NCBI GenBank assembly: GCA_963727805.1
Contig: CAVSHF010000003.1
Coordinates: forward strand, 2,240,001 to 2,304,000
DNA length: 64,000 nucleotides
Reading direction: 5' to 3'
From: an uncultured Nitrospiraceae bacterium
GTDB taxonomy: Bacteria > Nitrospirota > Thermodesulfovibrionia > Thermodesulfovibrionales > Dissulfurispiraceae
Below the pieces are notes generated by a model, which was given only the letters and a program-made list of their open reading frames with translations, searched no databases and was not told where the DNA came from. Both the position numbers and the translations under genes were made by a program. Below are positions 5,849-34,481 of this stretch, one piece after another (position 1 is the first letter of the stretch; each line of letters begins with the position of its first letter).

Positions 5849-5924
5849 GGCGGCGTAGCTCAGTTGGTAGAGCATGCGACTCATATTCGCAGAGTCCGGG
5901 GTTCGAATCCCTGCGCCGCCACCA
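5849..5924 (+). tRNA. tRNA with CAT anticodon (most likely elongator tRNA-Met)
   Basis: GGCGGCG/CGCCGCC acceptor stem, TAGCTCAGTTGGTAGAGC D-arm, TGCGA-CTCATAT-TCGCA anticodon arm, GTTCGAATC T-loop, encoded CCA. Confidence 0.96.
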
Positions 5925-5933
5925 TTTTTGTTG

Positions 5934-7375
5934 TAACTCCTACTCCTACACATCAAATATGGTATAACCAGAGTATGGACGGTTGTTAACCGTTCATAAG
6001 GGGCAGGAGGACGTGGTTTCCTACAGGGTCAAGAATCCTTTACTAAGTCAGTCCCCTGTCTCCCAAAGCCATGATAAGTTGATAGGGCTACGAGCTCTTG
6101 TAAAGATGGAGATATGGTTGGGAGGCATTCCTGCCTAAGGTCCTATGCGGGAGGTGGTTGGAAATGAGCAAAGCATTCGTTGGCATCGATGTGTCAAAAG
6201 AGCACTCGACTGCCCAAAGCATCGACAGTGACGAAAAGAAGCTTTTTTATTTAAGGTTCTCAATGGACTCAGCGGGGTTCGCAGAGCTTCGGACTGCTAT
6301 TAAAGGATGCGGGGTGAACCCGGAGGATATTGCAGTGGCGATGGAGTCCACCGGCTGTTATCATATCAATCTCTTTTCCTTTCTATGTGCGGAGGGACTT
6401 CGTTGTGCGGTAGTAAATCCGCTTCTGATATCCAAATTTGTTCAGGGATCATTGAGAAAGACCAAGACAGATAAGAAGGATGCGATGACCATAGCGCAGT
6501 TTCTTCTGAACAATGAGAAGAAGCTGTGCGTGGTAACGTCATCCCAAGATGCGCAGGATCTGAGGGATCTGGCCAGGGAACGAGAGTCTCAGTCATGGAT
6601 GATTGCATCACTTAAGAATGACCTCAAACGGCTGCTGCAGAGCACCTTCCCCGAGCTTGAGACACTCCGCAAGAATATTTACACTGAGACGATGCTGAAC
6701 TTTGTTCGACAGTATCCATCGGCCAGATTAATCCGGGAGGCAAAGAGGAAAGATATCGACAAAGCACTCATCTGCCCCGGGGAGAAGCGCAAAAGAGTCC
6801 AGATTAGCGCCGACGATCTTATTGAGGCGGCAAAGCGTTCGGTGGGCTCAGCTGGTACAGCGAAGGAGCTTATCGTCTCTGAGAAGGCAACCACGATCCT
6901 GTATCTTCAGGAAAAGTGTGAGAAGATTACCGAGGCATTGGTGGATGCGTGTGAGGCAACACGGATCGAAGATCTTGAGATAATGAAGACGCTCGACGGG
7001 GTGAAAAACATCCTTGGCAGCAGCTTTCTAGCGGAGATGGGAGAGTTGTCCAACTTTAAATCATATAAGAGCTTGATAGCATACATGGGGTTCGATCCAT
7101 CGACTCATCAATCGGGGAAGCATGTGGGGCCAAGCAAAATATCCAAACGAGGGAATCGTCATATGAGGCGCATCACCCATATAATGACACTCGGTTCAAT
7201 AAAATCTGACAATATATTCAGAGAATATTATCTCAGAAGGATAGCCGAAGGATTGCCTAAGATGAAGGCATTAATGGCGACTTCTCACAAGCTAATAAGA
7301 GTGATCTTCTCTATGCTTACACATAGGATGCCGTTTAAAAAGGAGGTGGCTGCTGTATAGTTGACTTATTATCAA
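5934..7375 (+). mobile_element. IS110-family element A (long 5' non-coding end; exact ends uncertain)
   Basis: IS110 transposase with ~220 nt structured upstream region, very short 3' end containing TTGACT, no terminal IRs or TSD seen. Confidence 0.7.
6158..7360 (+). CDS. IS110-family transposase/recombinase (ATG at 6164 is a likely start)
   Basis: VGIDVSK, AMESTG, KTKTDKKDA (DEDD RuvC-like), QSG serine, ISKRGN. Confidence 0.95.
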   Translation: MEMSKAFVGIDVSKEHSTAQSIDSDEKKLFYLRFSMDSAGFAELRTAIKGCGVNPEDIAVAMESTGCYHINLFSFLCAEGLRCAVVNPLLISKFVQGSLRKTKTDKKDAMTIAQFLLNNEKKLCVVTSSQDAQDLRDLARERESQSWMIASLKNDLKRLLQSTFPELETLRKNIYTETMLNFVRQYPSARLIREAKRKDIDKALICPGEKRKRVQISADDLIEAAKRSVGSAGTAKELIVSEKATTILYLQEKCEKITEALVDACEATRIEDLEIMKTLDGVKNILGSSFLAEMGELSNFKSYKSLIAYMGFDPSTHQSGKHVGPSKISKRGNRHMRRITHIMTLGSIKSDNIFREYYLRRIAEGLPKMKALMATSHKLIRVIFSMLTHRMPFKKEVAAV

Positions 7376-7405
7376 CACCGCAGAGGCACGGCTTATTATT
7401 CAAGG

Positions 7406-8043
7406 GTCGAGTAGGCCGGTGGAATCGCACCACCAGCCCCTCACAGATTCCGTACGTGAACCTCTCGATTCATACGGCTCGTGTCAATCATCAAGTTGAG
7501 TCTTTGCAGTCTCAACCATACACATTGAGCGATAGTTCCTCCTGGTCACCCAGTTGACTGGTACTCTTTGTGGATTGACCCATCCCCTTCCCTCCACGGC
7601 TTATTATCACCGCTTCATCGGTACTATTGGACGGTCCGACCCCTTCACCTGCATCGATACTTTCCCCCTTCGTTTGCACTTATAGGGTTTTCTCTTAGCA
7701 TCAGATGAAGAGTTCCCGCGTTCCACACAGGAGCCTAGATCAGCTTCATGCCGCCTCTATGCCGGACGCCGTTCAGGCAGTAAACAGGTATCTCCTGAAC
7801 TAATCCTGATGCAAAGTAAGAACATCAGTTTTGACGTCGTCCTTTTCCTTTCGACACCTCATCAGCGGTTCGCTTACGCTCATCTCTCTGATCCATCCCT
7901 GACACGATCTAGTCGTGCCTTTTCCTTTAACGCTCACCACCGGAGCCTTTCGACTACAGCAGCTTAAGGTGGGTTGAAGCCTGCTCCTGCAAGCCGGCTT
8001 CGAGGGGCCAACCCTCATCTTCCTGTGCAGCCTCGTGGCGCAC
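7406..8043 (-). ncRNA. ORF-less group II intron, copy 1 (638 nt, IIB/class D-like)
   Basis: Minus strand starts GTGCG, ends CCTACTCGAC; domain V GAGCCGTATGAATCGAGAGGTTCACGTACGG; no RT ORF in domain IV. Confidence 0.92.
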
Positions 8044-8096
8044 TTACTTTCGGAAGTCTAGACTGACGCTTTTCTCCGGGAATCTTGTCTGCACCT
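8044..8096 (-). repeat. ~55-bp repeat, copy 1 (inverted relative to copy 2 at 15801)
   Basis: Minus strand aggtgcagacaagattcccggagaaaagcgtcagtctagacttccgaaagtaa versus aggtgcaggcaagatttccaggagaagtgcgtcagtctaga|tttccggtagtaa. Confidence 0.8.
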
Positions 8097-8100
8097 GATA

Positions 8101-8709
8101 ACATCCATTGAGAGCGACCGTGTCAAGAGAAAAAAGTATGCCGACAGTCTTTTATTCCTAAGACCGTATATCATTAGAAGTCCTTTGACATGAATAATCT
8201 GTCTCGTCTTTCTGAAAACGATGCAGAACCATTATCTGCATCAAACATCCATACGGGCTCTGTGGGATTACTCCCTTGCAGGGCAATGAAGCTTGCTCTG
8301 CGGCACCAGAAAGTTATCGGTTCCTGACCAGCCTCATTCAGCAAATGCAGTCGATGTCTGCACAGGGCAGCATCAGTTATCGTGGAGCTACCGGCCAGGG
8401 CAGACATCCATTGAGAGCGACCGTGTCAAGAGAAAAAAGTATGCCGACAGTCTTTTATTCCTAAGACCGTATATCATTAGAAGTCCTTTGACATGAATAA
8501 TCTGTCTCGTCTTTCTGAAAACGATGCAGAACCATTATCTGCATCAAACATCCATACGGGCTCTGTGGGATTACTCCCTTGCAGGGCAATGAAGCTTGCT
8601 CTGCGGCACCAGAAAGTTATCGGTTCCTGACCAGCCTCATTCAGCAAATGCAGTCGATGTCTGCACAGGGCAGCATCAGTTATCGTGGAGCTACCGGCCA
8701 GGGCAGACA
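8101..8709. repeat. Perfect 303-bp tandem duplication (8101-8403 / 8404-8706, plus 3-nt overlap) of the IS right end
   Basis: Direct base comparison; both units begin acatccattgagagcgacc and end ccggccagggcag. Confidence 0.95.
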
Positions 8710-9906
8710 ATGTCAAAACACCTCCATTTTTTTAAAGACAGATGGCGGCTACCAATCAAACACTCGGGCTTATGAGCCCACTTATCAGGCGGGTATTACC
8801 GCCACCCATCAGCCGAAAAGCTTTGCCTCGTCAAAAGGGACCCCTTCCTTCAACATATGAAACGTAGCGTTGGCTATTTTGTGAGCCAGAATGCAGTTGG
8901 CCACCATCGTAGCCGCACTGCCCTTCCTTCTGTTGGCATGTTTGTCCCTGAACTTTCTGAGCTTCGGATAATACCTGACCGCAATATTGGCGGCTTGGGT
9001 AAATGCAAACTTCAAATAATGATTCCCCTGCTTCTTTCCCTTCCCTCTCTTTACTGTGTCGGAGGACTGAGATACACCCGGCACCAAACGACAATAGGAT
9101 GCAAACTGCCTGACATCTCTGAATCTGCTGATGTCTCCTATCTCGTAATAGATCGTCAATCCAAGCACGTACATTACGCCGGGCAACGTTAACAGAAGCT
9201 TGAATCTGGGATCTTCTAACGTGATGTCTTTTAACCCAGTATCGAGCTTGTCAATCTGGTTGGATAGCAGGTCGATTCTCTCCAGTATCATGACGCAGTA
9301 ATCCTTCACTTGCTGAGGGATCGGCATAATATGAAGATCTGCAGGTAAGAGCTTCTTCAACTCGCTACCGCTCATGGTGTTCAGGTTATACTTTATGAAC
9401 TGTACCCTCAAGCTCGAATAGCATTCGGCACGCTCATGAACAAGGCCTGCCCTTCTCCTTAAGAGGTCTCTCAATGGTCTTTTCTCCTTGGGATAAATAT
9501 ACGCCTCCGGGAGTTCACCCATCCTGAGAAGTTTTGCCAACTTAAATGCGTCTCTTCTGTCAGTCTTTACCTTCGCCCCTGTTATCATGTACAGACCCAA
9601 TGTATGTGCAAGCCTTACGTCATAGCCCTTGTCCTTAAGTCCATCCACAATCCAATACCAATTTATGGTGCATTCAATCGCAATATGTACATCCCTACCG
9701 AAGGGTTCTAGAAATTCAAAAATGACCGAAAGATCATTGTTGAGATTACCCTCCTTTACCTTTTTCCCGTCCTTGTCAATAATACAGAGTTGGGATTTCT
9801 TGGTATGCAAATCGATTCCACAGTAAAATGTCATAGCGGCCTCCTTCCAGTTTTTGAATGCAATACAATTATCACATCCAACGGAGGTCGCTCTCAATAA
9901 TTATCA
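8102..9906 (-). mobile_element. IS110-family element B (IS1111 type) with duplicated right end
   Basis: 13-bp sub-terminal IRs attgagagcgacc (8107-8119) / ggtcgctctcaat (9886-9898); long 3' non-coding end; shared TG core at both ends. Confidence 0.88.
8809..9834 (-). CDS. IS110-family transposase/recombinase (start MTFYCGIDLH after AAGGAGG)
   Basis: CGIDLH, AIECT, KVKTDRRDA, EIGDISRF, SQSS, GNHYLK. Confidence 0.95.
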   Translation of the reverse strand: MTFYCGIDLHTKKSQLCIIDKDGKKVKEGNLNNDLSVIFEFLEPFGRDVHIAIECTINWYWIVDGLKDKGYDVRLAHTLGLYMITGAKVKTDRRDAFKLAKLLRMGELPEAYIYPKEKRPLRDLLRRRAGLVHERAECYSSLRVQFIKYNLNTMSGSELKKLLPADLHIMPIPQQVKDYCVMILERIDLLSNQIDKLDTGLKDITLEDPRFKLLLTLPGVMYVLGLTIYYEIGDISRFRDVRQFASYCRLVPGVSQSSDTVKRGKGKKQGNHYLKFAFTQAANIAVRYYPKLRKFRDKHANRRKGSAATMVANCILAHKIANATFHMLKEGVPFDEAKLFG

Positions 9907-10032
9907 AACACCGCGGCCATCTCTCCGAGTGTGTTTATTTCCAGTTGTCACCTCGTGTCAACACTTGCTTCGATATGGTTTTATAGTGGTAGTATTTAAG
10001 TCGAAGGTCTTCAATCTTAATACGTTGTCGTT

Positions 10033-10794
10033 TCAACGAACCAAGAAAATCACGGCGACTATTAACCCGATCGCTACAACAATACGGCGCAGTACCACCG
10101 GATTAATCCAGCTTGCCAATCGACCGCCCAATGCTCCTCCTGCAAGAGCACCCACAGCCATAATGAGTGCAGCGGACCAAACCACCTGACCCGAAAACAA
10201 AAAAAAGATTGCGGCCGCAGTGTTAATGGCGAACGAAATAACTTGTTTCAGAGCATTGAGTCGCGTAAATGAGTCTTCCAGCACAAGTCCAAGTACCGCA
10301 AGTACGATTACGCTCACAGCAGCCCCGAAGTAACCTCCGTAAATTGCTGCGGGGACCATCGGAAGTATTGACCATGCCTCATGCAATGTAACTGCTTCGG
10401 AATGACCGGGACGGCGTGTGACCCATGCACGCAATTTGTCCTGAGCAGCCAGCAGCACCACAGACAAAAGAATCAGGAATGGCACAAGTTTTCCAAATGA
10501 CTGATCACTCGTATTCAGTAATACTATTCCGCCTGCGATACCGCCCAGCACTCCGACAGGCAGTAGGAGCCATAGACGAAGCGCCTGACCTCGCAGGTCC
10601 TTCATCTGCGCAAAGGTTGCGCCAAGGTAGCCGGGGCAAAGCGCCACGGTATTTGTTATGTTGGCAGCAACAACTGGAATACCAACAGCAGTGAGCATGG
10701 GAAATGTGATGAGAGTTCCTCCGCCGGCTAGTGCATTTACCGCTCCTCCTACAATGGCCGCTGCGCCCACTGCTAACAAATCCAAACCGTTCAT
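10033..10794 (-). CDS. TauE/SafE (TSUP) family membrane protein
   Basis: [41 protein letters not shown] before MNGLD. Confidence 0.88.
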
Positions 10795-10839
10795 TATCGA
10801 CTTTTCCTCCTCATATTTACGTCGCAGACTATGCACGAT

Positions 10840-11010
10840 ATGCTTGTTGTATGCGGGGATGTGTGTGGCAGCATGGCGTTCATCATTTCTTTAGTGAAGG
10901 TCGCGATCGCGTCCTTGAGCGAGGGTGCATGATAGCCGAACTCCATCGCAAAGTGGCTGGTGGGTTTCGATGCAACAAGTTTGGGCAAATGCCTTGAAAA
11001 ATCGTCTTGT
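10840..11010 (-). pseudogene. Degraded C-terminal fragment of isochorismatase-like cysteine hydrolase
   Basis: Pieces TCCIET and FAMEFGYH...[12 protein letters not shown] lie in different frames and resemble the family C-terminus. Confidence 0.4.
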
Positions 11011-11273
11011 GACCTCCGCTTCTTACGACAATGCTGATCTCATATACCCACATCCGGCAGCAGTCCGCAAAACAGCTAATAGAACAATTATAGGAAGTGC
11101 ATAGTCAAAGTTATCCGCACATTCTATGTCTTAATTATACATATTGCATAATGCGATTTGTATAATGCGTCAAAAAAAGAACTTTACCTATTGGTCATAG
11201 TCAGAGGTGGACCCCAGAAATCGGACAGTCGTATAAGGTGTAAAATATACGATTGACTGGAGGTCGCACTGAG

Positions 11274-11561
11274 ATGAGCAAAACAAAGAGGAACCGATAT
11301 TCAGGGGAGTTCAAAGCAAAGGTAGCGCGTGAAGCAATGAGGGAGGGATCGACGATTGTAGAGATCGCATCACGGTACAATATTCACCCCAATCAGGTTA
11401 GCGAGTGGAAGAAGCAGGCTATTGAAGGGCTTGCAGATGTATTTACAGGGAAGCACGGTCGTAACGAAAACGCTCACGAGGCTCAAATCACGGAACTGCA
11501 TGCCAAGATTGGGCAGTTGACAGTGGAGCGGGATTTTTTAGCGAAAGCCTTCAATCGATGA
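11274..11561 (+). CDS. IS3 OrfA (HTH)
   Basis: RYSGEFKAKVA...IHPNQVSEWKKQ...KIGQLTVERDFL; T-TTT-TTA slippery heptamer near 11533. Confidence 0.92.
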   Translation: MSKTKRNRYSGEFKAKVAREAMREGSTIVEIASRYNIHPNQVSEWKKQAIEGLADVFTGKHGRNENAHEAQITELHAKIGQLTVERDFLAKAFNR

Positions 11562-12424
11562 GCCGCGATCGAAGGAAAGAGATAATTGAACCGGAACACC
11601 CGAGGCTCAGCATTACGAGACAGTGCAACCTACTTCAAATCAGCCGCTCGTCGTGGTATTACGAAGCAATGGGAGAATCGGCACAGAATCTGGAGTTGAT
11701 GCGCCTAATTGACGAGCAATTTCTGAAGACCCCGGAATATGGAGCCCGTCAGATGGCCCGTTATTTACGGCGGCAGGGATATTGGGTAAACAGGAAGCGG
11801 GTAAGTCGATTGATGCAGAAGATGGGGCTAATGGCGATGTACCAGAAACCCAACACGAGCAAACCGCATCCTGAGCACAAGGTCTATCCCTATCTGCTTA
11901 GAGGCTTGAACATTACGGAGCCAAACCAGGTGTGGTGCGCCGATATCAGCTTCATCCCGATGCGACGGGGATTTCTATATTTGGTGGCGATTATGGACTG
12001 GGCGAGCCGAAAGGTTTTAAGCTGGCGGCTCAGCAACACTATGGAAGCTGCTTTCTGTGTGACAGCCCTCAAAGAGGCCTTGGCCAGATACGGCAAACCA
12101 GGGATCTTCAATACCGATCAAGGCAGCCAGTTCACCAGTATTGAGTTCACACAGACGCTCCTGGATTCCGGTGTAAAGATATCAATGGACGGAAAAGGCC
12201 GCTGGGTGGATAACGTGATGGTTGAACGGCTATGGCGATCACTGAAGTATGATTGCGTTTATAGATACGCATTTGAGACCGGCAATGAAGCAAGAAATGG
12301 CATCGGCGAGTGGATCAAGCAGTATAACGAGGAGCGTCCTCATTCTTCTCTGGACGACAGGACGCCTCATGAAGCATACTGGAATCTGCCAAAGGCAGGT
12401 TGCCCGGGAAAACTGGCGGCATGA
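11558..12424 (+). CDS. IS3 OrfB (DDE integrase core)
   Basis: NQVWCADI, FNTDQGSQF, DNVMVERLWRSLKY, YNEERPHSSL; ATGA overlap with orfA. Confidence 0.94.
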   Translation: MSRDRRKEIIEPEHPRLSITRQCNLLQISRSSWYYEAMGESAQNLELMRLIDEQFLKTPEYGARQMARYLRRQGYWVNRKRVSRLMQKMGLMAMYQKPNTSKPHPEHKVYPYLLRGLNITEPNQVWCADISFIPMRRGFLYLVAIMDWASRKVLSWRLSNTMEAAFCVTALKEALARYGKPGIFNTDQGSQFTSIEFTQTLLDSGVKISMDGKGRWVDNVMVERLWRSLKYDCVYRYAFETGNEARNGIGEWIKQYNEERPHSSLDDRTPHEAYWNLPKAGCPGKLAA

Positions 12425-12668
12425 TGACCGGTGGCTTCCACCTTAAATCAGCCCCAAAGCTGTCCAACCAATGGGGGCCACCTCTGTCAGAGTGCGTATC
12501 AACTTACTTCTACTCTTAAAGTCATCATCGTGGCGACACTGTTCAATATGCAAGATTTCTTCCGGAAATAATGGCCACAGATGCATTCTCAGTTTCTAGC
12601 CAGAAACAATGTTGTAGCATTTGCACCAGAAAAACCGAAAGGAGTTGGAGTCTCCGATCGGCTTCTGG

Positions 12669-12863
12669 TTAAGATGCGAGGATTAGGGCGGCGTGTCTGA
12701 TGTCGAGGCCTTGGAGTTCTTTGTAAAGATTGCTCCGAGATGCCGGAATCTGGCAGGTGTGGCAGCCTGTACGGTTGTGATTCACCGACTCGGAGCATTT
12801 CGAGCAATGCTTGGCAATTGTACTCAATTTTTGATAGATGGCTCCTGCAGTGACTTTGTACAT
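12669..12863 (-). CDS. Small hypothetical protein with two CxxC motifs
   Basis: GAGGAG RBS; CSKC...CHTC; 64 aa. Confidence 0.45.
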   Translation of the reverse strand: MYKVTAGAIYQKLSTIAKHCSKCSESVNHNRTGCHTCQIPASRSNLYKELQGLDIRHAALILAS

Positions 12864-13907
12864 CTTTTTGTTCTCCTCTTTTCTTTGGGGTATATCCCCT
12901 TTCCTTTCTTATAGCTATATTCTAATAATACTGCTAATGATATAAAATATATATCGGACCACTCCTTTATTTTTTGTAGGATGAGTGATTGGCGGGATGT
13001 ACTTGTCTGTCCTACTATCAAAGTAATTCTTGACCAGGGGTTCGGAGGCAGTGTTCATTTACAGGCATAAAACATCATTTCGACCTTGCGAATTTCCACT
13101 TATAATATCGACCGACGATCTTGCTCTGGAAACATTTCAGCATCTAAATATGAACTGATGCTTGGTTTGTATTTGAAGAAATCATCGACAGTAAATAATC
13201 GCCCGGACTGAATATTGGTGAAATTGTCATCGGGGACTAGACCTGACAGCGTGTTCACAAGTCATCTGTTTTATGAACACGCCCAATCTTGGCTATTTCT
13301 TAGTAACGTTTTTTGCGACTCAAGGAATGACAAATTGGCGCTCCTGCAATTTGTAGCGGATTGCAGGAAGAGGGGAACCTAAAGTTGGCAGTTACTGCCA
13401 ACAAAAAGGCCCAGTAACAAACATGCTACTGCGCCTATTAATTGGAACACCGTGGATCTCAAATATGGTACAGAATCTGACAAAAAACAGCTTCCGGCAG
13501 TGAATTGTTGTAGTCATTTAGAACACAAAAATGGTACTGAGTCAAAATAGAACAAGACGGTGGCGTTGAGTCACAGCAGATAAGTTGTGCCTCAAAATAA
13601 CTTTCATGGCTGCTTTGTCAAGTGTCTCCTTGGTTAAAGCATCAGTACATTAGTACGCTGAATCGGAAGGAAGTTCCCGAATGATTTCACTTCAGGAGCA
13701 CCTTCTTGGGCTGCATAAAGCAACCCATTTCTCTTGTTTGCCCGCTCTTCAAGATATTTAGCAACAAAGAGTCGACGTGACTGCTGAGAAACGCTATGTT
13801 CAAGAACGCAAATGCAAGACATCTTCCGACAAGAAAATTGGCATGTTGTCCTACAAAAAATTCAGGTTAATCCTGATAACAAATTCATAGATAATCCTTT
13901 AAGCTAA

Positions 13908-13945
13908 TAATAGTGATATTTTGGAAGAATAAAATATCACTATTA
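13908..13945. promoter_or_regulatory. 15-bp perfect inverted repeat upstream of receiver-domain gene
   Basis: taatagtgatatttt-8 nt-aaaatatcactatta. Confidence 0.55.
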
Positions 13946-13988
13946 CAACACGACAATAAAGACTTATTACTAGGCAAGGGAGGTTTGC

Positions 13989-14432
13989 ATGTTTGGTATA
14001 AGCGCAAAAGAGAGCCAATCAGTTGATCAACCGGTCAATGTCTTTAATCAGAAGCTGGGAATAAGCATATCTAGAAACACTCACAGTATTCTTATTGTAG
14101 ATGAAGACGGTGATGTTCTAGATCAGCTTTTGAAGAGTTTCACCATTTGCGCAAAGCAATATAACATTTACATAGCCAAAAATCACAGGGACGCCTTAAA
14201 GGTTCTAAAAACCTCTTCAGTGAACATTTTGCTAACTGCCCTCAACATGCCCGTCATGCAAGACTTTGATCTTATAGACTACACAAAAATATATTATCCA
14301 AACACTCGGATATTCGTCATGTCGGAAGAAGATCCATGTACAATAAAAACCAGATTGGATGATTTGAGAATTTACGGATACATAAGAAAACCGTTACGGA
14401 TTGAAATGGTCTATAGCATATTGCGTGTTTAA
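13989..14432 (+). CDS. Stand-alone receiver-domain protein lacking the phosphoacceptor Asp
   Basis: ILIVDED, LLTALNMP (Ala at the usual Asp), YIRKP; GGAGG RBS. Confidence 0.75.
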   Translation: MFGISAKESQSVDQPVNVFNQKLGISISRNTHSILIVDEDGDVLDQLLKSFTICAKQYNIYIAKNHRDALKVLKTSSVNILLTALNMPVMQDFDLIDYTKIYYPNTRIFVMSEEDPCTIKTRLDDLRIYGYIRKPLRIEMVYSILRV

Positions 14433-14648
14433 TAGTGTCGATGAGCGAGGCAGAGAAGAACAAAGCTAGTAACGGCTCTGGATTATATGCTATTAAATCA
14501 TAATATCAACGTATCTTAAGGGGACGGATTTAATGATCTGCCAGATGCCGACATTTCTTTTTCAAAGTATCTTCCCCTAATTGCAGTCTTCGCGAAAATG
14601 CCAATGATTGCAAATTCTTGGTAACCCTTTTATTTTCAACATAGGTCT

Positions 14649-14663
14649 TGGCACAGCCTATGC
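14649..14663 (+). promoter_or_regulatory. Putative sigma54 -24/-12 promoter
   Basis: TGGCAC-AGCCT-ATGC (GG-N10-GC) ~85 nt before ORF 14747. Confidence 0.45.
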
Positions 14664-14746
14664 CTTAAATATAGGAAATATAGGCTAAACATTCAGAGAA
14701 TGAAGAAAAGATCCAGCCAGCATCAGTAACAACGGAGGGACAACTA

Positions 14747-14995
14747 ATGCAACGGATAATTAAATTTATGATTAAGATGATAGGGCGTAATGTTTTTATA
14801 TTGTCGGCAATAATAGTAGGGTATATCGTTGGAATTACCCACGGCTTTGACAAGGGTTATGCCTTTTATGGTAGACAACTGACTTCCGATGTCCGTGAGT
14901 TCATCGCTGATCCACAGGGAGGGGTCTGGATAGGTCAGATACGTATTGAGATGGTGAATAAAGATAAGAGCTATTTCAAGGTGGCGGTGCGTTAG
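14747..14995 (+). CDS. Small single-pass membrane hypothetical protein
   Basis: GGAGG RBS; hydrophobic segment VFILSAIIVGYIVGI. Confidence 0.55.
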   Translation: MQRIIKFMIKMIGRNVFILSAIIVGYIVGITHGFDKGYAFYGRQLTSDVREFIADPQGGVWIGQIRIEMVNKDKSYFKVAVR

Positions 14996-15466
14996 CCGTC
15001 ATTTTTTGCAAGATGGAGAACCAGACCGAAACCTGCAAGTTGTGTGCTGACACCACATATTAATTGCATATTAGCACTAGTGTACCTGTAAGCGCCATAA
15101 CTAAGTGCAACGCTTCAGATTGAAGCATCCCATACCCAAAAAAAGAACCTATTTATAAAGAGTTATCCGTTTCCTGCGAAGTGAGGGATAATTATGTGCC
15201 AGGATAAGCTAAAATTTTTGGTTTTGTGCAAAAACATGCGTTCAATAAGGTGCGCCCTAAGGCCATATTTGTGCAAAATATGGTTGAAATCAGCGCAAAA
15301 CCATGCTTCGCTTCACATATGATCGGTCAAATCTCCACGCTGAGGAACAGCCTTCAGGAAAGGGGCGGCCTGTCATGACTCCTCTAGCGATGAAGGCAGT
15401 TGTGATAAACGATTCTAGGCCCAACCCATTTTGGAGCCAATCTTTGGATCCTCGACCCATAATATT

Positions 15467-15670
15467 ACCCAGACACCTATGCGGCCGCTCCTTGTTGTAT
15501 TGAAGGCGCCATTTCTCGATTACCTTTGGGGCATGTTCCATGATCATAAATCAGTTCTGATTTAAACACTCATCACGTAATCTGCCGTTGAAGCTCTCCA
15601 TATAAGCATTATCGACCGGGTTGAAGGTGACAGAGCTGAAGCTCGATTCTACGCTCATATACCCAATGAC
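15467..15670 (-). pseudogene. IS3-family (IS407-like) OrfB remnant
   Basis: DNAYMESFNGRLRDECLNQN*F...IEKWRLQYNKERPH with in-frame stop. Confidence 0.85.
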
Positions 15671-15800
15671 ATGGCGAACACTGCGTTTCTCAAAGATGCA
15701 GATCAAGTCGCGTTATAAGGATGCAATCGACAGCACGGTCATGATAGGTTATTTTGGAAGGTAATCACCAAATTCCTAGTACTGGTAAAATCGATGTAGG

Positions 15801-15841
15801 AGGTGCAGGCAAGATTTCCAGGAGAAGTGCGTCAGTCTAGA
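15801..15841 (+). repeat. ~55-bp repeat, copy 2 (split by IS110 element C; continues at 20951-20963)
   Basis: Matches the reverse complement of 8044-8096 once element C is removed. Confidence 0.8.
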
Positions 15842-15937
15842 CATAATGTATTAAACCTGTCCAACCTTAAAGGACGTGGGTTAAGCTTTAAGGTAACGAA
15901 ACCAAAGGCTCAGAGCCACAATTAAGGAGGACAGGTT

Positions 15938-16095
15938 ATGAAGAATTTTAGCACATTTATCGGCATGGACGTACACATGGAAAAGATAGCAGTAGCAACG
16001 GCAGGGAAGCATGGAGTGCCCCGATACTATGGGGAGATTGCCAATACAGCCGAGGCTATAACGAAGCTGGTAAAAAAGGTAGTGCCATCTGGAAG
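15938..16095 (+). pseudogene. IS110 transposase C, 5' part
   Basis: AAGGAGG RBS; MKNFSTFIGMDVHMEKIAVA...; joins in frame to 19613-20582 (375 aa when rejoined). Confidence 0.92.
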
Positions 16096-16173
16096 CTAGC
16101 CTGTTCACAAAGGTGTTGACATTTGCTCCGCAAGAACATATATATCCCTTATCAGCAATGATAGGGGATATAT

Positions 16174-17954
16174 ATGTTGGATGAAGACGCATTAGCCGAT
16201 AAGCTTCGTATTCCACTTCCCGTTGGGGATGTGCAGGTCAATTTCTGTAAGAATCCTGCATGCCCTAATTTTGGGATTCCTGCCAGCCAGCGGAAACAAC
16301 CTCGTGGAAGATATTCCGGTGATAAAGAGAGAGACGCCTATGTTATAAGTAGCGGCGATAAGCCGCAAACTGTTCTCCTAAGATGCACCCTATGTGGCGA
16401 ATACCCGACAATTAAAAGCAACCTTGCAATCAGTGAGGAGATTGATCGCCTGTCACAGTACCTCGGACCAGAGAAAGAGATAATCTCATGCCCCAATCTG
16501 GGATGTCCAAACCGCACAGTTCCCCTATCAACGCCGAAAAGCTACGTATCTTTTGGAAAGACTAAATCCGGATCTCAAAGGTATCGCTGTAGGCTATGCG
16601 GAAAGGTATTCTCTGTCGGTACCCCGACGACCCGGCAAAAGAAGCCACATAAGAATGCCATGATATTCAAACTGCTTATGAACAAAGTGCAATCATCCGT
16701 ATTTGCGAGGTGGCCGGGCTCGGATCGATGAATGCGCTTTACTGGAAGATCGATTTCATCAACAAGCAGTGTCTTGCTTTCGCCGCCGCTAAGGAACGTA
16801 AACTGCTTGAGGGCTTCCCTATTAAGAGACTCTATATTGGCACGGACAGGCAGGATTACATGGTCAACTGGTCCGATTCTGCCGATAAGCGTAATGTAAT
16901 GCTCCACGCCGCAGGCAGTGCTGACAATAGTAGCGGATATGTATTTGGTCTGCACCTTAACTTTGACCCCAGTCTTGATCCTTTCTTGATTGTCCAGGAT
17001 GCTGAAGCGTCGGGAGACCTTGAAATGAAGGTCCCTTTCAGAAAGCACGCTCGTGTCTGGCTGCCAAAGGATTACCAAGAATCTGCCAATACAAGCTTAA
17101 GAAGACAAAAGGTAGAGACATACGGCACTCTCCCGGAAGATATTGAACAATCCTATGCCGAGGCCCAGGAGCGGGAAGATATAGAGGTGTTCGAGCAAAA
17201 AGATTATAACACTCGGTTGCCTGCAAAGGGCTTGCAGGTGCATGCCGAATACACTCTTTATGGACACTTCTTCCTTCTCAGGCAGCTCTTTGGCGGGGTT
17301 GAGAAGGTCAGGTTTTTCTTGGATCAGGATTCTGGTATGCGAGCAGCGTGCTTAAGCGCCTTTGTCAACCAGATCAAAGAGAAAAGGTGCGATGCATTTT
17401 ATGTCCGCATTAACAAGAATCTGACTATTGGCGAGAAGCGACAAGCAATGGTTGCCGTCCGCAAAGAATGGGAAGAAACAAAAAAAGAATATCCGGGACT
17501 CGGCGACTCCAAACTTCGACTTCTGATTATTAAGGAACGGATTAGGCAGGCTGTGAATATGGGGAAATGGTCGGACAAGTGGATTCTGCATCCATTCCCG
17601 AATATGAGCGAGCCCGAAAAGGCAGTGTGTTACCTCACCGATATTCAGGGGTATGATGAAGACCACCTTGCCTGGCTCTACAACAAGGCAAGCCTTCATG
17701 CCATAGACCGATTTTTTATGCAGGTTCGCAGGAGATTGTCTTTGTTAGAAAGGCCTATCGCAACGCCGAGCAGTGCCGGGCGGAAGTGGTTCGGCTATAG
17801 CGCTTATAATCCTGCCATTATCATCAAGATTTTAGATATCTTCCGTGTTTTCTACAATTACATAGAGGTCGGGAAGGATGGGTTGACGCCAGCGATGAGG
17901 GTGGGATTGGCAAAGGGCAGAATAGAGATCCAGGACGTTATTCATCATATTTAG
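16174..17954 (+). pseudogene. Long zinc-ribbon DDE-like transposase split by a frameshift near 16690 (ORFs 16174-16731 and 16710-17954)
   Basis: CKNPAC, CTLC, CPNLGC, GKTKSGSQRYRCRLC (InsA-like zinc ribbon); acidic motifs GTD, FLDQD, IDRFF; C-terminal YN...TPAMRVGL. Confidence 0.75.
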
Positions 17955-18016
17955 TCATCTGGACTGTATATGCGTCAGGTAATATGTATTACTAGATATT
18001 AAAAAGGAGATTATAT

Positions 18017-18205
18017 ATGCAAGATAAAACGAAAAAAATGTTTGGCATCACCGTATTTCTATTAATTATTGCGGTGGCATGTCTTACGGGTCTTAGCTTA
18101 TTAGGATTTAAAATAGATATTATAGGGTCGGTGATATTGTGCGTGATTTTGATGCCATTGATTCTATATGCTATCTATTTAGATTTAGGGAGGAAGCGTA
18201 AATAA
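18017..18205 (+). CDS. Small two-helix membrane protein (passenger)
   Basis: AGGAG RBS; two hydrophobic segments. Confidence 0.6.
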   Translation: MQDKTKKMFGITVFLLIIAVACLTGLSLLGFKIDIIGSVILCVILMPLILYAIYLDLGRKRK

Positions 18206-18351
18206 TAAGGGGGGTGTATTATTCGGCTGATTTTGGACAGCCGATCCACAATTGCATTGCACCATAGCGTATGTGTTAGTGGGATTAAGGAGTGCATGCG
18301 CGTCATTAAAGATTATGATAAGATTAAGGTGAAACTACTTGGAGACAAAAC

Positions 18352-18837
18352 ATGAAAGAATCAATATATCTTGAAACCACGATTGTCAGTTATTACACAT
18401 CAAAACCCAGCCGAGACATAATCGTACTCGCACATCAGGAGATAACGCGAGAGTGGTGGGACAAGGCATTGAAGCGATACGAGGTTTTTATTTCTGCCAT
18501 GGTGGTTGAGGAGGCTAGGGCGGGTGATCCTGAAGCTGCGAAAAAGCGATTGGGCATATTAAAGAGATTCCCCTATCTTGATCTGAACCCTTCGGTAGAA
18601 AAGATGGCTCAGGTGTATGTCGAAAAGCTAAAAATCCCCCCTAAGGCTCTCCGTGATGCTGTCCATCTTGCTGTTGCGTCTGTTCATAGGGTCGATTATT
18701 TGCTGACTTGGAATTGTTCTCATATTGCAAACGGAGAAGTTATAAGAAAACTGATGCAGATAAATATGTCATATGGTATTAAGACTCCGATAATATGTAC
18801 TCCGGAAGAATTGATGCCAAGGATAAAAGGAGAATAA
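18352..18837 (+). CDS. PIN-domain (VapC-like) toxin
   Basis: IYLETTIVSY, DAVHLAVA, DYLLTWNCSHIAN, ICTPEEL. Confidence 0.88.
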   Translation: MKESIYLETTIVSYYTSKPSRDIIVLAHQEITREWWDKALKRYEVFISAMVVEEARAGDPEAAKKRLGILKRFPYLDLNPSVEKMAQVYVEKLKIPPKALRDAVHLAVASVHRVDYLLTWNCSHIANGEVIRKLMQINMSYGIKTPIICTPEELMPRIKGE

Positions 18838-18841
18838 GATA

Positions 18842-19009
18842 ATGTGGAAAGACCCTATAGTTCAGGAAGTCCGCAAGGCTGGCGAAGAACTTGCGAAGAA
18901 TTCAAACTACAGTCTGCAGGGTCTGTTTAAGATCCTGCGGAATAATGAAAAAAAGAGCAAAGCCAAGGTTCAGACAAGGCTGAGTGGGAATCTTAGAAAA
19001 GCGTGTTAA
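18842..19009 (+). CDS. Small basic protein downstream of the PIN gene, candidate antitoxin (55 aa; below the ORF-track cutoff)
   Basis: AAGGAG RBS overlapping the toxin end; MWKDPIVQEVRKAGEELAK... Confidence 0.7.
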   Translation: MWKDPIVQEVRKAGEELAKNSNYSLQGLFKILRNNEKKSKAKVQTRLSGNLRKAC

Positions 19010-19115
19010 TTGGGCAGTCGGTTACATTGCCGCACTTGGCAACCTCTCGATGGGATAGATGTCCGCCAGACCGGAACGGGAGGCTGGATTTGCTTAAATC
19101 TCGCTTTTATGTTAT

Positions 19116-19493
19116 CTAAGCACTATGTTTTATACGATACCATGCAAACATACCGGTTCCAATAGGGAGCCCGATTCTCACAATAAGCAAGAATCTGTGC
19201 AGTAGTGAAAAATCAGGCTGATGTTGAGCTATTTCACCAATAACATTCCACAAGCACAGTGACACAATGAATGCTATCGCAGCAAGCACTTCGAATAGGC
19301 CTATTCCCATGTGAACTTTCAGTGCCATGTAAGCTATAACAGATAAAATTAGAATTAGAACAACAGTGCCAGCAATAGTAGATGTGGATACTCCGAGTGC
19401 ATCTGCTAATCGAGATGAAAAGACAAGCAGCAGAATGAATCCTAGTAGAACTATCCCGACACTTATGGCAAAAAAAACATCAGATAATTTCAT
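19116..19493 (-). CDS. Four-helix membrane hypothetical protein (passenger)
   Basis: GGAG RBS; four hydrophobic segments. Confidence 0.65.
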   Translation of the reverse strand: MKLSDVFFAISVGIVLLGFILLLVFSSRLADALGVSTSTIAGTVVLILILSVIAYMALKVHMGIGLFEVLAAIAFIVSLCLWNVIGEIAQHQPDFSLLHRFLLIVRIGLPIGTGMFAWYRIKHSA

Positions 19494-19612
19494 TTAAGCT
19501 CTCCGTAAGATTATTTCAAGAAGTAAAGCCTCTAACCTATTACAAGTTAGAGGCTTTTGGAATTTTTACTACCTGCCATCAACACCTTTGTGAACAGGCT
19601 AGCATCTGGAAG

Positions 19613-20582
19613 TCGGGCTGTTTTTTGTTATGAGGCTGGGCCGTGCGGATACGGAGTATATCGGCAAATAACGGACATGGGGCATCGATGCGATGTTATA
19701 GCCCCTTCATTAATACCGAAGAAAGCCGGAGATCGAGTGAAGACAGATCGGCGCGATGCTGTGACACTGGTGCGTTTACTTAGAGCAAATGAACTGACAG
19801 CGGTGTGGGTTCCTGATCAGCAACAAGAGGCGATTAGAGACCTCACACGAATTCGTGAAGATATGAAGAGCATGGAACGGCGTGCCCGGCAACGATTGAA
19901 CGGCTTTTTGTTGCGAAATAAGAGAATCTACTCCGGCGAAAATAAATGGACACAAGCACATTTCCGCTGGCTTGAAAAGATCAGCTTTGAAAGTCCTATC
20001 CAGCAGATCGTCTTTCAAGAGTATATAGATGCAGTTAAACACCTTCAGGGACGCGTGGTATCGCTGGAAGAACAGATGATCAAAGCGCTTGCGGGATGGT
20101 CGTTGGGAGCTGTGGTGGAAGCATTGATGGCATTACGGGGAGTTAAGCTTGTAACGGCGATGCCGATTGTATCAGAGATTGGAGATATAAGCCGTTTTGA
20201 AAGTCCTCGACAATTAATGGCTTATCTTGGATTAGTACCGAGCGAGGATTCAAGCGGTAATCGTCAAAAAAGAGGAGGCATTACCAAAACAGGCAATGGA
20301 CATGTTCGCAGGTTACTTGTAGAGGCTTCTTGGAGCTATCGTTTTGCTGCTAGGAAAACAGCTCATCTTCAACGGAGGGCCGAAAAGGCAAGTGAGGCGG
20401 TACAGGCAATTGCGTGGAAAGTGCAAAAACGTTTGTGCGGCCGATACTGGCATCTGACACAAAAGGGAAAACTAAAGGTGCAGGCATGCACTGCAGTGGC
20501 AAGGGAGTTGGCAGGGTTTATTTGGGCTATTGGTCGCGAGGTTATGGGAAAGAACAATAGTGCTGCGGTGAAAGTTGCATAA
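19613..20582 (+). pseudogene. IS110 transposase C, 3' part
   Basis: CYEAGPCG, RVKTDRRDA, EIGDISRF, GLVPSEDSSG, GGITKTGN. Confidence 0.93.
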
Positions 20583-20689
20583 CATGCAAACATGCACAGT
20601 AGAAGAAAGTTGTTGCCCCTAGTGGCTTCGTAATCATAAATGTGTTCTTCTAAACTTAGACAACTGTGGACATTGATTCGACGGGTGTG

Positions 20690-20870
20690 CATTTTGGCCA
20701 GGATAGCAGCCGGTTGGGAGAACCCTCGGGAAATCTAAGAGGCGCCTTCTTAAAGGCTGACCCTCGACTCTAGACACAGGCAGCTCCACGACGAAGACAA
20801 GTCATGCGGTATCCAACCCGCGCATATCAGAGTGATCTACCGTCGTTTATCGCTGCTGTCCTGACCCAAA
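20690..20870 (+). ncRNA. Candidate bridge/seek RNA of IS110 element C
   Basis: 3' non-coding end containing matches to its own target (ggaaatcta, tctaga) and donor junction (catatcaga); RNA boundaries are approximate. Confidence 0.65.
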
Positions 20871-21076
20871 TGTATGATCCAAAAAGGAGGTTATAACAAA
20901 AAAACAAAGACGCTGATCATCAGCACTTGACAGGTTTAATACATATCAGATTTCCGGTAGTAATGCCCCATCGGACAGGATTGATCACGAAAATGAACTG
21001 GTACCAAGTAAAAAAAATGGTATACTGTAAAATTCATGGTAGAGAACCTAATAATATCAATGAGGAGGAATGATTC

Positions 21077-21409
21077 ATGGCGTTAATACGCAAGAAACGT
21101 ATCTGGTGGGCACAAGCTGAGGGAGCTGCAGAATATGTGGTTTACTGCAGTAAGGATGCTGCCGATTTAGAATCTCATAATTTCAAGTGGGAGTCGACAC
21201 CCGGCTTAGTGAACAAAGTTGTCCGCGGGAAGACTGAACTGATACTACCGGATGAGTGGAAAGAGTTCCCTTCTGACCCTGGCGAGTATCACCTTGCCAT
21301 TACAGCTCGAGACGAGGCAGGTAACGAAAGTGACCCTTTTTTGTGCCAGGGGTTCTTCAAGTTTACTGCACCACTTGCACCCACAAGGGCAGGGATAGAG
21401 AGTCATTGA
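21077..21409 (+). CDS. Hypothetical protein, fibronectin-III-like beta-sandwich
   Basis: GAGGAGG RBS; W...Y.VY...Y.LAITARDEAGNES pattern. Confidence 0.6.
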   Translation: MALIRKKRIWWAQAEGAAEYVVYCSKDAADLESHNFKWESTPGLVNKVVRGKTELILPDEWKEFPSDPGEYHLAITARDEAGNESDPFLCQGFFKFTAPLAPTRAGIESH

Positions 21410-21423
21410 CTGACTGGGTCTTG

Positions 21424-22101
21424 ATGACGGATTCAATCCGCCTCACAAGAGAGTCGCTCGGCCGGATTCTTAAGCTAATTCCTGTGTCTCGGGATAGATT
21501 TAACAATGCGTCTTTTAGAGAAGTATTCCTAGATGACCTCTCTCAGCAAGTCGTCTTGATTGATCGCCTGACGGAAAGTCTTGAGAAATATATCGCTAGC
21601 AAAGAGTGGGACGAGGGTACAGGTAAGATTAACCTTTTTGTCAAGGAAATCCTTAAGAATCACCAGATGGAATTTGCTGGCAAGAATATCCAAGTTCATC
21701 TATCTCTCCAGAAAGACATCCCTAATGTCACTCTTCCGGATGAACATTTGAAGCATGTTATAAAAGTCGTCCTTCAATACGCAATATCCTCTCCATCCAG
21801 AGACGACCATTTAAAAATCACAATGAAACATGTTGAAGTACAAGAAGGAACCGTAGATGTCGAAGATAGGAACCGAACAGACTGCATCGAACTCGATGTA
21901 GATTTTAGTGGATATCCCTGGCAAATCGACTCATCTGAAGATGATTTCGGCATGACGCTCTCCAATAAAGAGAAGGTGTTGAAGCTTGAACTCAGCTTTG
22001 CTAAGAATATAGTCGAAATACATGGGGGGCAACTCAGGTTGCTACATCGTAGCAGTGACTCTACAACAACAATAAATTTAACGCTTCCAATTCGAAAATG
22101 A
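21424..22101 (+). CDS. Degenerate histidine-kinase-like (HATPase-like) protein
   Basis: INLFVKEIL, LQKDIPNV, AKNIVEIHGGQL, TTINLTLP; N and G boxes not canonical; start uncertain. Confidence 0.6.
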   Translation: MTDSIRLTRESLGRILKLIPVSRDRFNNASFREVFLDDLSQQVVLIDRLTESLEKYIASKEWDEGTGKINLFVKEILKNHQMEFAGKNIQVHLSLQKDIPNVTLPDEHLKHVIKVVLQYAISSPSRDDHLKITMKHVEVQEGTVDVEDRNRTDCIELDVDFSGYPWQIDSSEDDFGMTLSNKEKVLKLELSFAKNIVEIHGGQLRLLHRSSDSTTTINLTLPIRK

Positions 22102-23484
22102 AGACCACATCCCGCATACCGGGTAGATATGTGAATGCTATGTTATTATGTTTGAGATCTTCAGGCCTTTCTGGACACTTCTTTCATAAACGCTGGTGTA
22201 CACTGTGTTCTCCGCACAGATCGATAAAAATCTTAATGAGCATTTTGTTAATCTGCAGGCGATGACGGTTTCTTTCTAAATTCATGCATGAGCATTCGGA
22301 CTCTCACAGACTACTTGACACGGAAGAACATCTCGACTAAAACGTCTGCCTGAAAATAACAGCTACTTCGGAAATCGACAACTTTGGTGAAAGCCTGCAG
22401 CGTCAGTTCTCAAGTAGACTTTGAATAGCTCAGCTGGTGGATACGACGAGGGAGGTGTAACGAAGCCGCGAGAGGATTGTTAAATTACTTCCTATAAAAT
22501 CAGCCACTTAGCTCTTATCTATATATTACTATTCATAAAATTTCACTTTGAATAATACCAACACATTGCAAGCCTTTTATTCGAAAGTAAAAAGGGCGTA
22601 GTGAGGAGTTTAGAAAGCCGAAATCAAGCACGATATTTTTCGAGCGCTTTTCCCTTATTTGCCTTCCCATATTTTTTCAAAAGTGAGTTAGTCTATTCTG
22701 CGCTAGCAAAGCACAAGCGTTATGTCTTTGTTTTATATGCTTTTTACTTGCATTATCATGTGTATTTATTTTATAGTAAAAATATGATTTATACTTTTGG
22801 TTATATGATTTGGAGTGTCACAACTTCAAGTGTGCATGAAGGAGAATAGGAGAGATCAGTTGGTTGACGTGCAGTCACACCCCTACTCCCTTCCACCAGA
22901 GAAGTTCGATTTTAACCTGAACAGGCTTCATACTTATTTTGTGGAGTGCCACATTTGGGAAGGTGCAATTTTGGGTGGCAAGAAAGGACCAGTTTACGAG
23001 AACGGGATCGAATGACTGATAAATGAATGCTACTCCAAAAGCGTTCTCCTTTTTTTGCGTAGAGGCTGACCCTTGTTCATGTCACAGATTCTACGACATT
23101 GCTAGACGCCTCTTGTTCAAGGGTGTGGAGTGTATTCATGTTATGCAGTCGGGAGAAGAATTTACGACATCAGAATTAATCGACAGGTGCCCTTAGGCGG
23201 TCGCGTATTGGCCCAATCCAAATGGATGAATAGCAGATATATACTCTTCAGAAAAAAGAAGGCATGGCGCAGAGCTAGATCAAATTGCATAACGATCTTT
23301 ATAAAATTGAATCTCTTGTTCGAGTGGCTCATAGTTTCGTAGACGAGAACACTTGAGGAGATCCCCGTTTTGTGGATATCGGCACAATAACAGAGTTTAC
23401 CCTGGGAAGAATAAACTTACTCAAAGCCGATATTTTCAGTTTGTCTGAGGGATAAAAGAGGATACAAAGTAGAGAGTATAGACG

Positions 23485-23694
23485 ATGAAACATATCTGTA
23501 ATGAATGCAGGTCAGAGTTTGCCAAACGCCCGGCAATGGAATGCCCTGCGTGCGGACATGACGAACTAAGCGCAGTCGATGATAAGGCCTCTAAGTGCTT
23601 CTCAAGAACTCAGAATGGGGCCATCGATAAGGCCGTCGCGAGACTGAAGAAAGAGCCCCTGAAGATCCGATATGGAGGCATCGAGGACCTCTGA
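23485..23694 (+). CDS. Small zinc-ribbon protein
   Basis: CNEC...CPACG. Confidence 0.55.
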   Translation: MKHICNECRSEFAKRPAMECPACGHDELSAVDDKASKCFSRTQNGAIDKAVARLKKEPLKIRYGGIEDL

Positions 23695-24396
23695 TAATCT
23701 CCCTATTTATCTTCTTCGGAAGTTTTGGTGCATTATGGTAGGATTTTCAAGGAACCGTAAAAATTCTCTGATTAATGGACATAAAAATATGCTATACATG
23801 GCGTCATAAATCAATAACAATTCAGCAACACACGCTGCGTCTTCTTCCGACAGCCTTGCAGGACTTGAACATCCAAAGAAACAACCAGTTATGACGCCTT
23901 GCTTAGAAGAGGAAGCACATCTCAGTGCATGTTTCAAACGACCGCCTGAAAACCTCAAAGAAGATTGCATAATTTGCCCTGTAATAAACAGCATCTTTTT
24001 GCGAAGTGCACCTACAATTTCACAAGCAGCTCGAGGAGAAAACAACGATTTCCAGTAATACTAACCGTATTTCTTGAACAGGTGGGTTGGCCATAGAAGA
24101 AGTCCTCGCTGAGCTTGGCTTTCGGAAATATACTTCTTTTTGATAATTCGCAGCAAGCTTTTGATTGATAATACTCAACTTCACCCTCAAAGAAACGAAC
24201 AGGTTCAGATGGGAACGTGAATAGTCGCTAAAAAGACACAACGGCAGAACTGCAGCGTTGAGCAAGGAGACGTCGATAATTAGCTTGGTGATTTGTAGAC
24301 AACAGACGATAAAGAATCAACTTTAATCGCCTCCGGGCATATAAACACCAGAATGAGTCCCCTCATCAAACTTATGAATTATATAGGTTAGACAAG

Positions 24397-25347: not shown

Positions 25348-25416
25348 TTATTCCATTCCTTTAGCTTTCAAGGCGTGCGTTAAGAACAGGATATTCGTTA
25401 AGCTTACGCCCATTTT

Positions 25417-25470
25417 TTAGCCACTGGAAACCACAATTTCATGATCATCAGCGATCAGTATTCGAAGCAT
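25417..25470 (-). pseudogene. 5' remnant of a NarL-type response regulator
   Basis: GGAGG RBS + MLRILIADDHEIVV then stop after 17 codons. Confidence 0.6.
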
Positions 25471-25757
25471 TTCGCCTCCGTCAATCAAACGTTGTTAATA
25501 TAGTTTATGCAGATGTGAAGGACAAATACAGTCAGGGTTCTCTGTTTCTTCCCAGGTTGTAACACACAACATATTAACAGGAATCGAAACGCTTAATTCA
25601 GAAAGTTCATCTCGGTGCATATTTCACCTCGAAGACTAACTCCCACACCAAGAGTGGTATGTCTGCGATTGAACAGACGGCAACTCTGCAACTAGGCGGT
25701 GACAGAAATGGATCGAATGCTCAAATAAACCCGTATGGAAGTTCGCAATATTATTGT

Positions 25758-34162: not shown

Positions 34163-34481
34163 CCACCTCGGGAAAATATTGGGATTCTTTGCTTCTAAAT
34201 GAAAACCACCAAAATGGCCATGAATAGCATGAATAGTATGGGGCAAAAGTTGCAGGTTTTTGGGAAAAGGGCTTTTGTACAAAAGTTCCTGGTGTAACAA
34301 GCGGCCGGAGAGAGTCGCCCGCGTAGCATATCAGAGCTGGGGGAGATCGATAGAAATCAGCAAGACTCAATCAAAACAGGTCTTTCAGCATAAAGGCTCT
34401 GCTAACTAACTTCTATATAGGGGTATTATATCGCCTATACAAAATTATCCCTATATAGAAGTTAAATAATACTAATACGTT

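Follow-up and report, generated by a model that had tools for sequence, protein, structure and literature searches.

Given that a 638-nt group II intron without an enzyme gene occurs twice at unrelated sites in the stretch of DNA analysed here (the window, 64,000 nucleotides from the genome of an uncultured Nitrospiraceae bacterium), we asked how an intron lacking its own reverse transcriptase (RT) could have reached them. A preliminary description, made from the letters of the window, had proposed mobilisation in trans by an RT encoded elsewhere, which we also infer from the comparisons below. It had placed near-identical copies with different flanks at 7406-8043 and 33525-34162; the copies proved to be one base apart (7611 C versus 33730 T), and their identity ends at the intron boundaries. 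Position 33730 was read as C in all four sequencing runs compared, so the T may be private to copy 2 or an assembly error. Both copies lie on the minus strand, a point absent from that description, and each is downstream of a same-strand gene, copy 1 between two IS110 transposase genes and copy 2 between an acetyl-CoA synthetase gene and a 2911-aa GH94 gene. The assignment as a group II intron with domains V and VI was confirmed with Rfam models, since each copy matched group-II-D1D4-2 (RF01999) at 109.8 bits and Intron_gpII (RF00029) at 45.4 bits (cut-off 40); the termini, GUGYG at the 5′ end and AY at the 3′ end, are as for group II introns. No ORF of at least 100 aa overlaps either copy, in agreement with the reported lack of an RT ORF, and the RT encoded in domain IV (DIV) that counts towards class D is thus missing from the element itself. 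The element is a complete intron of self-splicing type without an enzyme gene, its splicing being predicted. Its features are as follows.

7406-8043, minus strand: ORF-less class D group II intron, copy 1 (638 nt; intron nt 1 = 8043)
33525-34162, minus strand: ORF-less class D intron, copy 2 (638 nt; one substitution, at 33730)
7717-8043, minus strand: domain I and junction, 92% identical to the resident RT-encoding intron, with a switch at intron nt ~327
7844-7848, minus strand: EBS2, pairing with target -13 to -9
7813-7819, minus strand: EBS1, pairing with target -7 to -1
7757, minus strand: EBS3 (G, intron nt 287); target +1 is C at 10/10 sites
7580-7712, minus strand: domains II and III, family type, with approximate boundaries taken from the fold
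7483-7579, minus strand: miniature domain IV, consisting of DIVa with GGAGG and a short DIVb hairpin that replaces the ORF
7542-7538, minus strand: GGAGG in DIVa of copy 1
about 7517-7493, minus strand: short, tetraloop-capped DIVb hairpin
7406-7482, minus strand: domains V and VI (catalytic domain), with a bulged A predicted near 7412
8044-8056, minus strand: 5′ exon of copy 1 with IBS1 and IBS2; IBS3 is 7405
34163-34175, minus strand: 5′ exon of copy 2 with IBS1 and IBS2; IBS3 is 33524

The search for further copies that the preliminary description had called for covered the whole genome (3.89 Mb, 5 contigs) and yielded ten full-length copies; the Rfam search and a custom-model search returned the same ten. 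Nine are identical and one carries a single change, although identity between copies within one assembly may be inflated by polishing. At all ten sites the intron ends are exact and the flanks differ. Identity running past the intron ends, which had been named as evidence of segmental duplication, was looked for and stops at the boundaries in 10/10; with the flanks of the copies unrelated, segmental duplication is ruled out. Every site is intergenic, and at none of the ten does a copy break a convincing ORF, the frames that span the site after excision being few and 81-122 aa long.

The guides fit these sites closely. Combined EBS1 and EBS2 pairing scored 8-11.5 of 12 at the ten sites, compared to a mean of 4.7 at random positions; nine sites scored at least 9.5, as did 0.12% of 200,000 random positions even with four offsets allowed, and the weakest, C3:743947, scored 8, which 2.2% of random positions reach. 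A class C (IIC) intron of the terminator/attC kind, marked by the lack of EBS2, was rejected, since EBS2/IBS2 pairs at 4-5 of 5 positions at nine of the ten sites. The C at +1 of every site lies opposite G at intron nt 287, which we assign as EBS3 because this position is Watson-Crick with +1 in 42 of the 48 readable family records (of 63). The same register is used by RmInt1 and RmInt2 of Sinorhizobium meliloti (class D, IIB), with IBS2 at -13 to -9, IBS1 at -7 to -1 and a G-C EBS3/IBS3 pair in the portion of the RmInt1 report available to us (PMC4075523). Collectively, the EBS/IBS pairing found at each of the ten sites speaks for retrohoming. Unoccupied look-alike junctions at C5:61320, C5:65473 and C3:790754 show no target duplication. 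Eight of the ten copies lie on the G-rich strand as defined by 100-kb GC skew, a small sample confounded by gene orientation; class D introns prefer the lagging-strand template.

Four sites (window 7360-7405; G000 C5:35426, C5:63431 and C3:793991) lie 33 nt upstream of one shared short core. This core is a repeat family with empty copies, and IS110 ends also occur beside it. The surroundings of copy 1 (5849-25500, after a tRNA) are rich in mobile elements, with three IS110 transposases, an IS3-type element and a PIN-domain gene. A direct tandem duplication of 306 bp at 8098-8709 involves the IS110 at 8809-9897, whose non-coding end it repeats; three further genomic copies of that end (C3:694460, C3:1085538 and C4:29709) match as a single unit, and the duplication may be real or an assembly artefact. 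Of two tauE copies of 267 aa, one occupies 10033-10836, and the second TauE lies at 43599-44357. A 13-nt match found by eye between the 3′ exon of copy 1 (7398-7410) and the loop of intron domain III is probably due to chance.

The abundance of IS110 and IS3 elements in the window, the 100% identity among copies and the tandem duplication beside copy 1 would suit a spread of the copies as DNA, by duplication, as IS cargo or by gene conversion, or else an assembly artefact. Such an origin is nonetheless highly improbable in view of the exact intron ends and guide pairing at all ten sites; moreover, a short-read contig set holds the intron with one further 5′ exon that fits EBS1 and EBS2 and is absent from the assembly, and in another contig copy 1 and its 5′ flank are contiguous, with zero differences over 932 nt. 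A low-depth contig that bridges copy 2 (skip 681, its short side being 28 letters) is too weak to indicate an empty allele, and the summed contig depth of one run, higher on the intron than on its flanks, was not used as copy number. No exon junction was found in contigs from RNA runs, which cover the intron and cannot show transcription or splicing.

A related intron RT, whose absence from the genome would have counted against mobilisation in trans, is present: two of the six intron RT genes, at C5:46945 and C3:1128094, lie within full-length introns of the element's own Rfam domain I family. The resident RT (412 aa) is 57% identical over 98% of its length to the multicopy intron protein of S. 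meliloti, a likeness from which the label "class D" is taken; we take that protein to be RmInt1. Judging by its length and its full-length match to relatives without an endonuclease domain, the resident RT appears to leave no room for one, and one of the two copies has C in place of R before YADD. These two introns likely encode the helper RT that would act on the element in trans. The EBS1, EBS2 and EBS3 of the element all differ from those of the two RT introns, and so do the targets: position -4 is G at nine of the ten element sites versus A at both RT-intron sites, and +1 is C versus T. Since the targets track the EBS of the element and not those of the helper, the element's own RNA chose its sites. 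The four other intron RTs belong to other Rfam domain I families and fall short of E 1e-110 with the resident class D RT as query. Among RT introns of the genome, L004-L006 (G000 C3:647802, C3:2327689 and C5:120139) are three near-identical RF02005 introns whose domain V/VI is unreported by RF00029, and in L003 (G000 C3:6831-8800), an RF02012 intron, the ORF stops about 100 nt before domain V.

The RT-encoding parent that the preliminary description expected, matching in domains I-III and V-VI, did not appear, as the resident RT intron matches in domain I only. Identity between the element and the resident RT intron is 92% in domain I, 63% in domain II and 64% in domain III, whereas with L030, an ORF-less intron of the family described below, it is 73%, 89% and 77%, respectively. 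Of the informative sites before nt 330, 76 sided with the RT intron and 13 with the family; beyond it, 47 sided with the family and 12 with the RT intron (Fisher p 2e-15), placing the switch at nt 327; a second comparator repeated it (p 5e-19). The comparisons demonstrate a mosaic, in which domain I, presumably acquired by recombination, comes from the lineage of the resident RT intron and domains II-VI from an ORF-less lineage.

A simpler origin would be the recent local deletion of the ORF from a resident class D intron, as in Thermosynechococcus TeI3. The 92% identity of domain I is what such a deletion would leave, and deletions of this kind do exist: the third ORF-less intron of the genome, L025 (C3:689720-690343), is an ordinary independent ORF deletion of a class D intron, as are L243, L257, L258 and L259, each a single match with its own junction. 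However, domains II and III of the element, 63-64% identical to those of the RT intron, are 77-89% identical to those of the family members L030 and L024; domains II-IV fall in a clade of their own; and the miniature domain IV scores 80-128 bits in family members but 47 in the deletion derivative (ORF-bearing controls reach at most 34). The switch at nt 327 already refutes a plain local deletion, which we regard as very improbable. The likeness of domain I to that of the helper could alternatively reflect convergent selection for recognition by the RT, given that intron RNA and intron-encoded protein (IEP) co-evolve in the RmInt1 work (PMC4615759, seen as excerpts). We give this reading hardly any weight, as the identity extends over variable peripheral helices and then ends abruptly, and reciprocal mosaics exist, L055 and L060, in which a family domain II is joined to an ordinary DIII, DIV and RT ORF.

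The mosaic reading is consistent with repeated exchange of domain I across the family. In the domain I tree, family members are split at least six ways among ORF-bearing introns, and a test of their monophyly rejected it (p-AU 6.8e-31). In this tree the resident RT intron has as its sister group the window element together with a decayed copy from G003, a genome of the same genus (100/97). Fourteen of the 63 full-length family records are nested, as twintrons, inside class D ribozymes, at about seven positions. L030 is inserted in a class D intron, just inside its domain II; the RT of this host shares 86% identity with the resident RT, and recombination between the domain I/II junctions of the two introns would give the layout of the element. 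This host is not the direct donor, as its domain I is 80% identical to that of the element versus 92% for the resident RT intron. Twintron nesting is a plausible route for domain swaps; the product would be no different if it arose by template switching or by ordinary recombination of introns resident together.

Several related arrangements were seen alongside. Three copies of a family intron, L031-L033 (CAWIRY010000100.1), stand head to tail within domain I of a class D intron, and the last of them is itself split by another intron. Other group II introns interrupt domain V or VI, at recurring positions, in the family members L034, L037, L047, L042, L061, L072, L095 and L108. Close relatives of the mosaic element occupy other sites in a contig of run X14, a wetland RNA library (about 96% over 604 nt), and in the metagenome contig L159 (92% in domain I and 98% in the rest).

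To delineate the ORF-less lineage, we used an exact-match pattern of domain II, which recovered 37 GTDB stretches (35 distinct loci) and at least 122 metagenome loci. For the miniature domain IV we made a covariance model from 47 sequences, which by construction match it; the model matched 28 of the 35 GTDB loci at full length and three in part; of the others, two carry an RT ORF, one is deleted and one shortened. Among the metagenome loci listed, the model matched 97 of 122, the others being too short or interrupted, and no ORF was seen in those without a match. The labels, assigned from record titles, span Desulfobacterota, Nitrospirota, Nitrospinota, Bacillota, Pseudomonadota, Acidobacteriota, Bacteroidota and Myxococcota, and short MAG contigs may be misbinned; at least four phylum groups are backed by isolates (a Desulfosporosinus chromosome and a Caballeronia plasmid) and megabase contigs. 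On plasmids, a clear family member was found only on the Caballeronia pSBC plasmids, and viral contigs gave 0 matches to the domain II pattern. A second member of the lineage resides in the genome of the element as a single copy, L024 (C3:2011708-2012346), sharing domains II-IV and differing in domain I and guides. An independent model search of 150 + 150 genomes found two strong matches outside the element's genome, both with the family domain II and one resembling a locus already in the set; four weak matches were separate ORF deletions with ordinary domain II and different junctions.

A tree based on domain II is partly circular because the members were found by a domain II pattern; the test was therefore redone without it. 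The tree of DIII and 5′ DIVa placed 59 family rows on one side and 22 ORF-bearing rows with the deletion on the other (99/95; 99 columns, unrooted). A tree of domains V-VI, with too few columns and just two ORF-bearing rows, was uninformative (p-AU 0.175). The trees omit duplicates, loci in which no 5′ end or split point could be detected, and two rows lacking a J2/3 match. In the miniature domain IV of about 95 nt, pairing holds in 94% of cells, and both sides vary in 26 of the 30 pairs; 0 of 500 shuffles reached 26/30 and slid controls gave 35-44%, a control that is favourable since the structure was derived from the tested alignment. The preliminary description had noted a GGAGG-like remnant in domain IV. 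The motif is there, but "remnant" is probably a misnomer: GGAGG is nearly invariant across the family although no ORF is present, and it sits inside the covarying DIVa stem, so it is probably not idle. Retention for RT binding is likely, because DIVa is the proposed IEP binding site in RmInt1, whose DIVa, like that of RmInt2, bears a Shine-Dalgarno sequence (PMC4615759, in part). Furthermore, EBS1 fits each member's own exon, with a mean of 5.63 of 6 against 3.97 when shuffled (47 records, 31 distinct exon ends; the maximum of 2000 shuffles was 4.37), indicating retrohoming of the family to many targets.

Eleven of the 15 other host genomes gave a class D RT match of at least 50% identity, several of these matches being broken or partial, and nine of the 15 gave one at E ≤ 1e-110, compared to 6/300 and 9/301 sampled genomes. 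Seven of the 15 are twintron hosts; among the remaining eight, five have a match of at least 50% and three one at E ≤ 1e-110. In four of the 15, including the complete chromosome G061, no class D RT match was found. G061 carries three family copies, many non-class-D RTs and, from class D, a domain I remnant only; the lack of a match there counts against strict current dependence, and the remnant is consistent with later loss. The element may instead have retrohomed in trans through one of the other four intron RTs of its genome or a relaxed general maturase: these RT introns are at hand, albeit of other domain I families, G061 fits such a reading, and relaxed driver IEPs are documented in the accessible part of PMC2882425. 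Speaking against the class D helper, domains II-III of the element are just 63-64% like those of the helper, and most heterologous IEP/RNA pairs among RmInt1 relatives lost mobility, even though the RmInt1 protein can act in trans (PMC4615759, excerpts). Nevertheless, with a DIVa motif of class D type, the co-occurrence in non-twintron hosts set against the sampled genomes, and the remnant in G061, we consider a different RT unlikely.

Together, these results make it probable, in our judgement, that the intact ORF-less class D intron found at ten intergenic sites owes its splicing and retrohoming to the RT/maturase of the two resident full-length class D introns, and that it is a mosaic of domain I from the RT-intron lineage with domains II-VI from an old cross-phylum ORF-less lineage. 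The intron would be transcribed by read-through from flanking genes. The borrowed RT would bind the retained DIVa and promote lariat splicing, as work on RmInt1 and T. elongatus suggests. The intron RNA would then pick targets through EBS1/2/3 pairing, which is seen at 10/10 sites, and reverse-splice into them. As the RT seems to have no room for an endonuclease domain, cDNA would probably be primed from replication forks, which RmInt1 reportedly uses for this purpose. Domain I would have been gained by recombination, possibly through collapse of a twintron formed when an ORF-less intron homed into a class D intron; EBS1, EBS2 and EBS3 now differ from those of the helper.

MITEs and SINEs are non-autonomous elements, and by analogy the intron resembles them in being enzyme-less, keeping its cis signals and outnumbering its helper (10 versus 2). 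It differs in that its RNA is itself catalyst and guide and can be retargeted independently of the helper. Compared to RmInt1 and RmInt2, it has no ORF, its naturally miniature domain IV is conserved across phyla, and its targeting of intergenic DNA is relaxed and multi-site, whereas theirs is directed to one IS target. Trans-mobilised ORF-less introns and twintrons are established in Thermosynechococcus elongatus (Mohr et al. 2010, PMC2882425); TeI3 (IIB1) represents, in the sections available, one deletion within the intron family of one genome, with ORF remnants visible. The element shares with the TeI3 type its multiple copies and EBS/IBS pairing (10/10), but its lineage is class D, spans phyla and appears to exchange domain I with its hosts. 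The ORF-less archaeal introns of Dai and Zimmerly (2003) and those described by Simon et al. (2008), both known to us by title or citation, likewise occur beside related RT introns and nested in introns; the former home into intron ORFs, whereas the family here homes into domains I and II of host ribozymes.

In the parts of two reviews available (PMC4424553 and PMC3245105), bacterial group II introns that lack an ORF are rare and are partners of closely related RT introns, and non-mobile derivatives are suggested not to persist. A large survey counts ORF-less introns without classifying them, its supplement holding a single unclassified "No IEP" column (PMC8919778, in part), and the accessible portions of PMC8643678, PMC12584367 and bioRxiv 10.1101/2024.08.31.610620 do not describe the element's family. 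No cross-phylum, long-lived, domain-swapping ORF-less class D lineage was described in the literature searched. The mechanism, a trans-mobilised ORF-less intron, is already known; what appears new is persistence, a dedicated domain IV and modular exchange.

A bolder reading would make the family a single old lineage of protein-free class D introns across about eight phyla, a dedicated parasite of RT-encoding class D introns: its miniature domain IV would be purpose-evolved to dock borrowed RTs, and homing into its donor introns as twintrons, followed by collapse that takes the donor's domain I, would adapt it to each new RT and bring it new target guides. We hold this tentatively, being slightly more inclined to doubt than to accept it. 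Retro-parasites of introns can be long-lived, as the conservation of an ORF-less lineage across phyla indicates, and the natural swaps present domain I, which does the targeting, and domains II-VI, which form the catalytic core and the RT dock, as exchangeable modules. The covarying miniature domains IV define likely binding needs of the class D RT. A general maturase acting in trans on ORF-less introns is a model for an early step towards shared splicing machinery, and a naturally efficient RNA of 638 nt with dozens of guide variants is a candidate compact scaffold for gene targeting.
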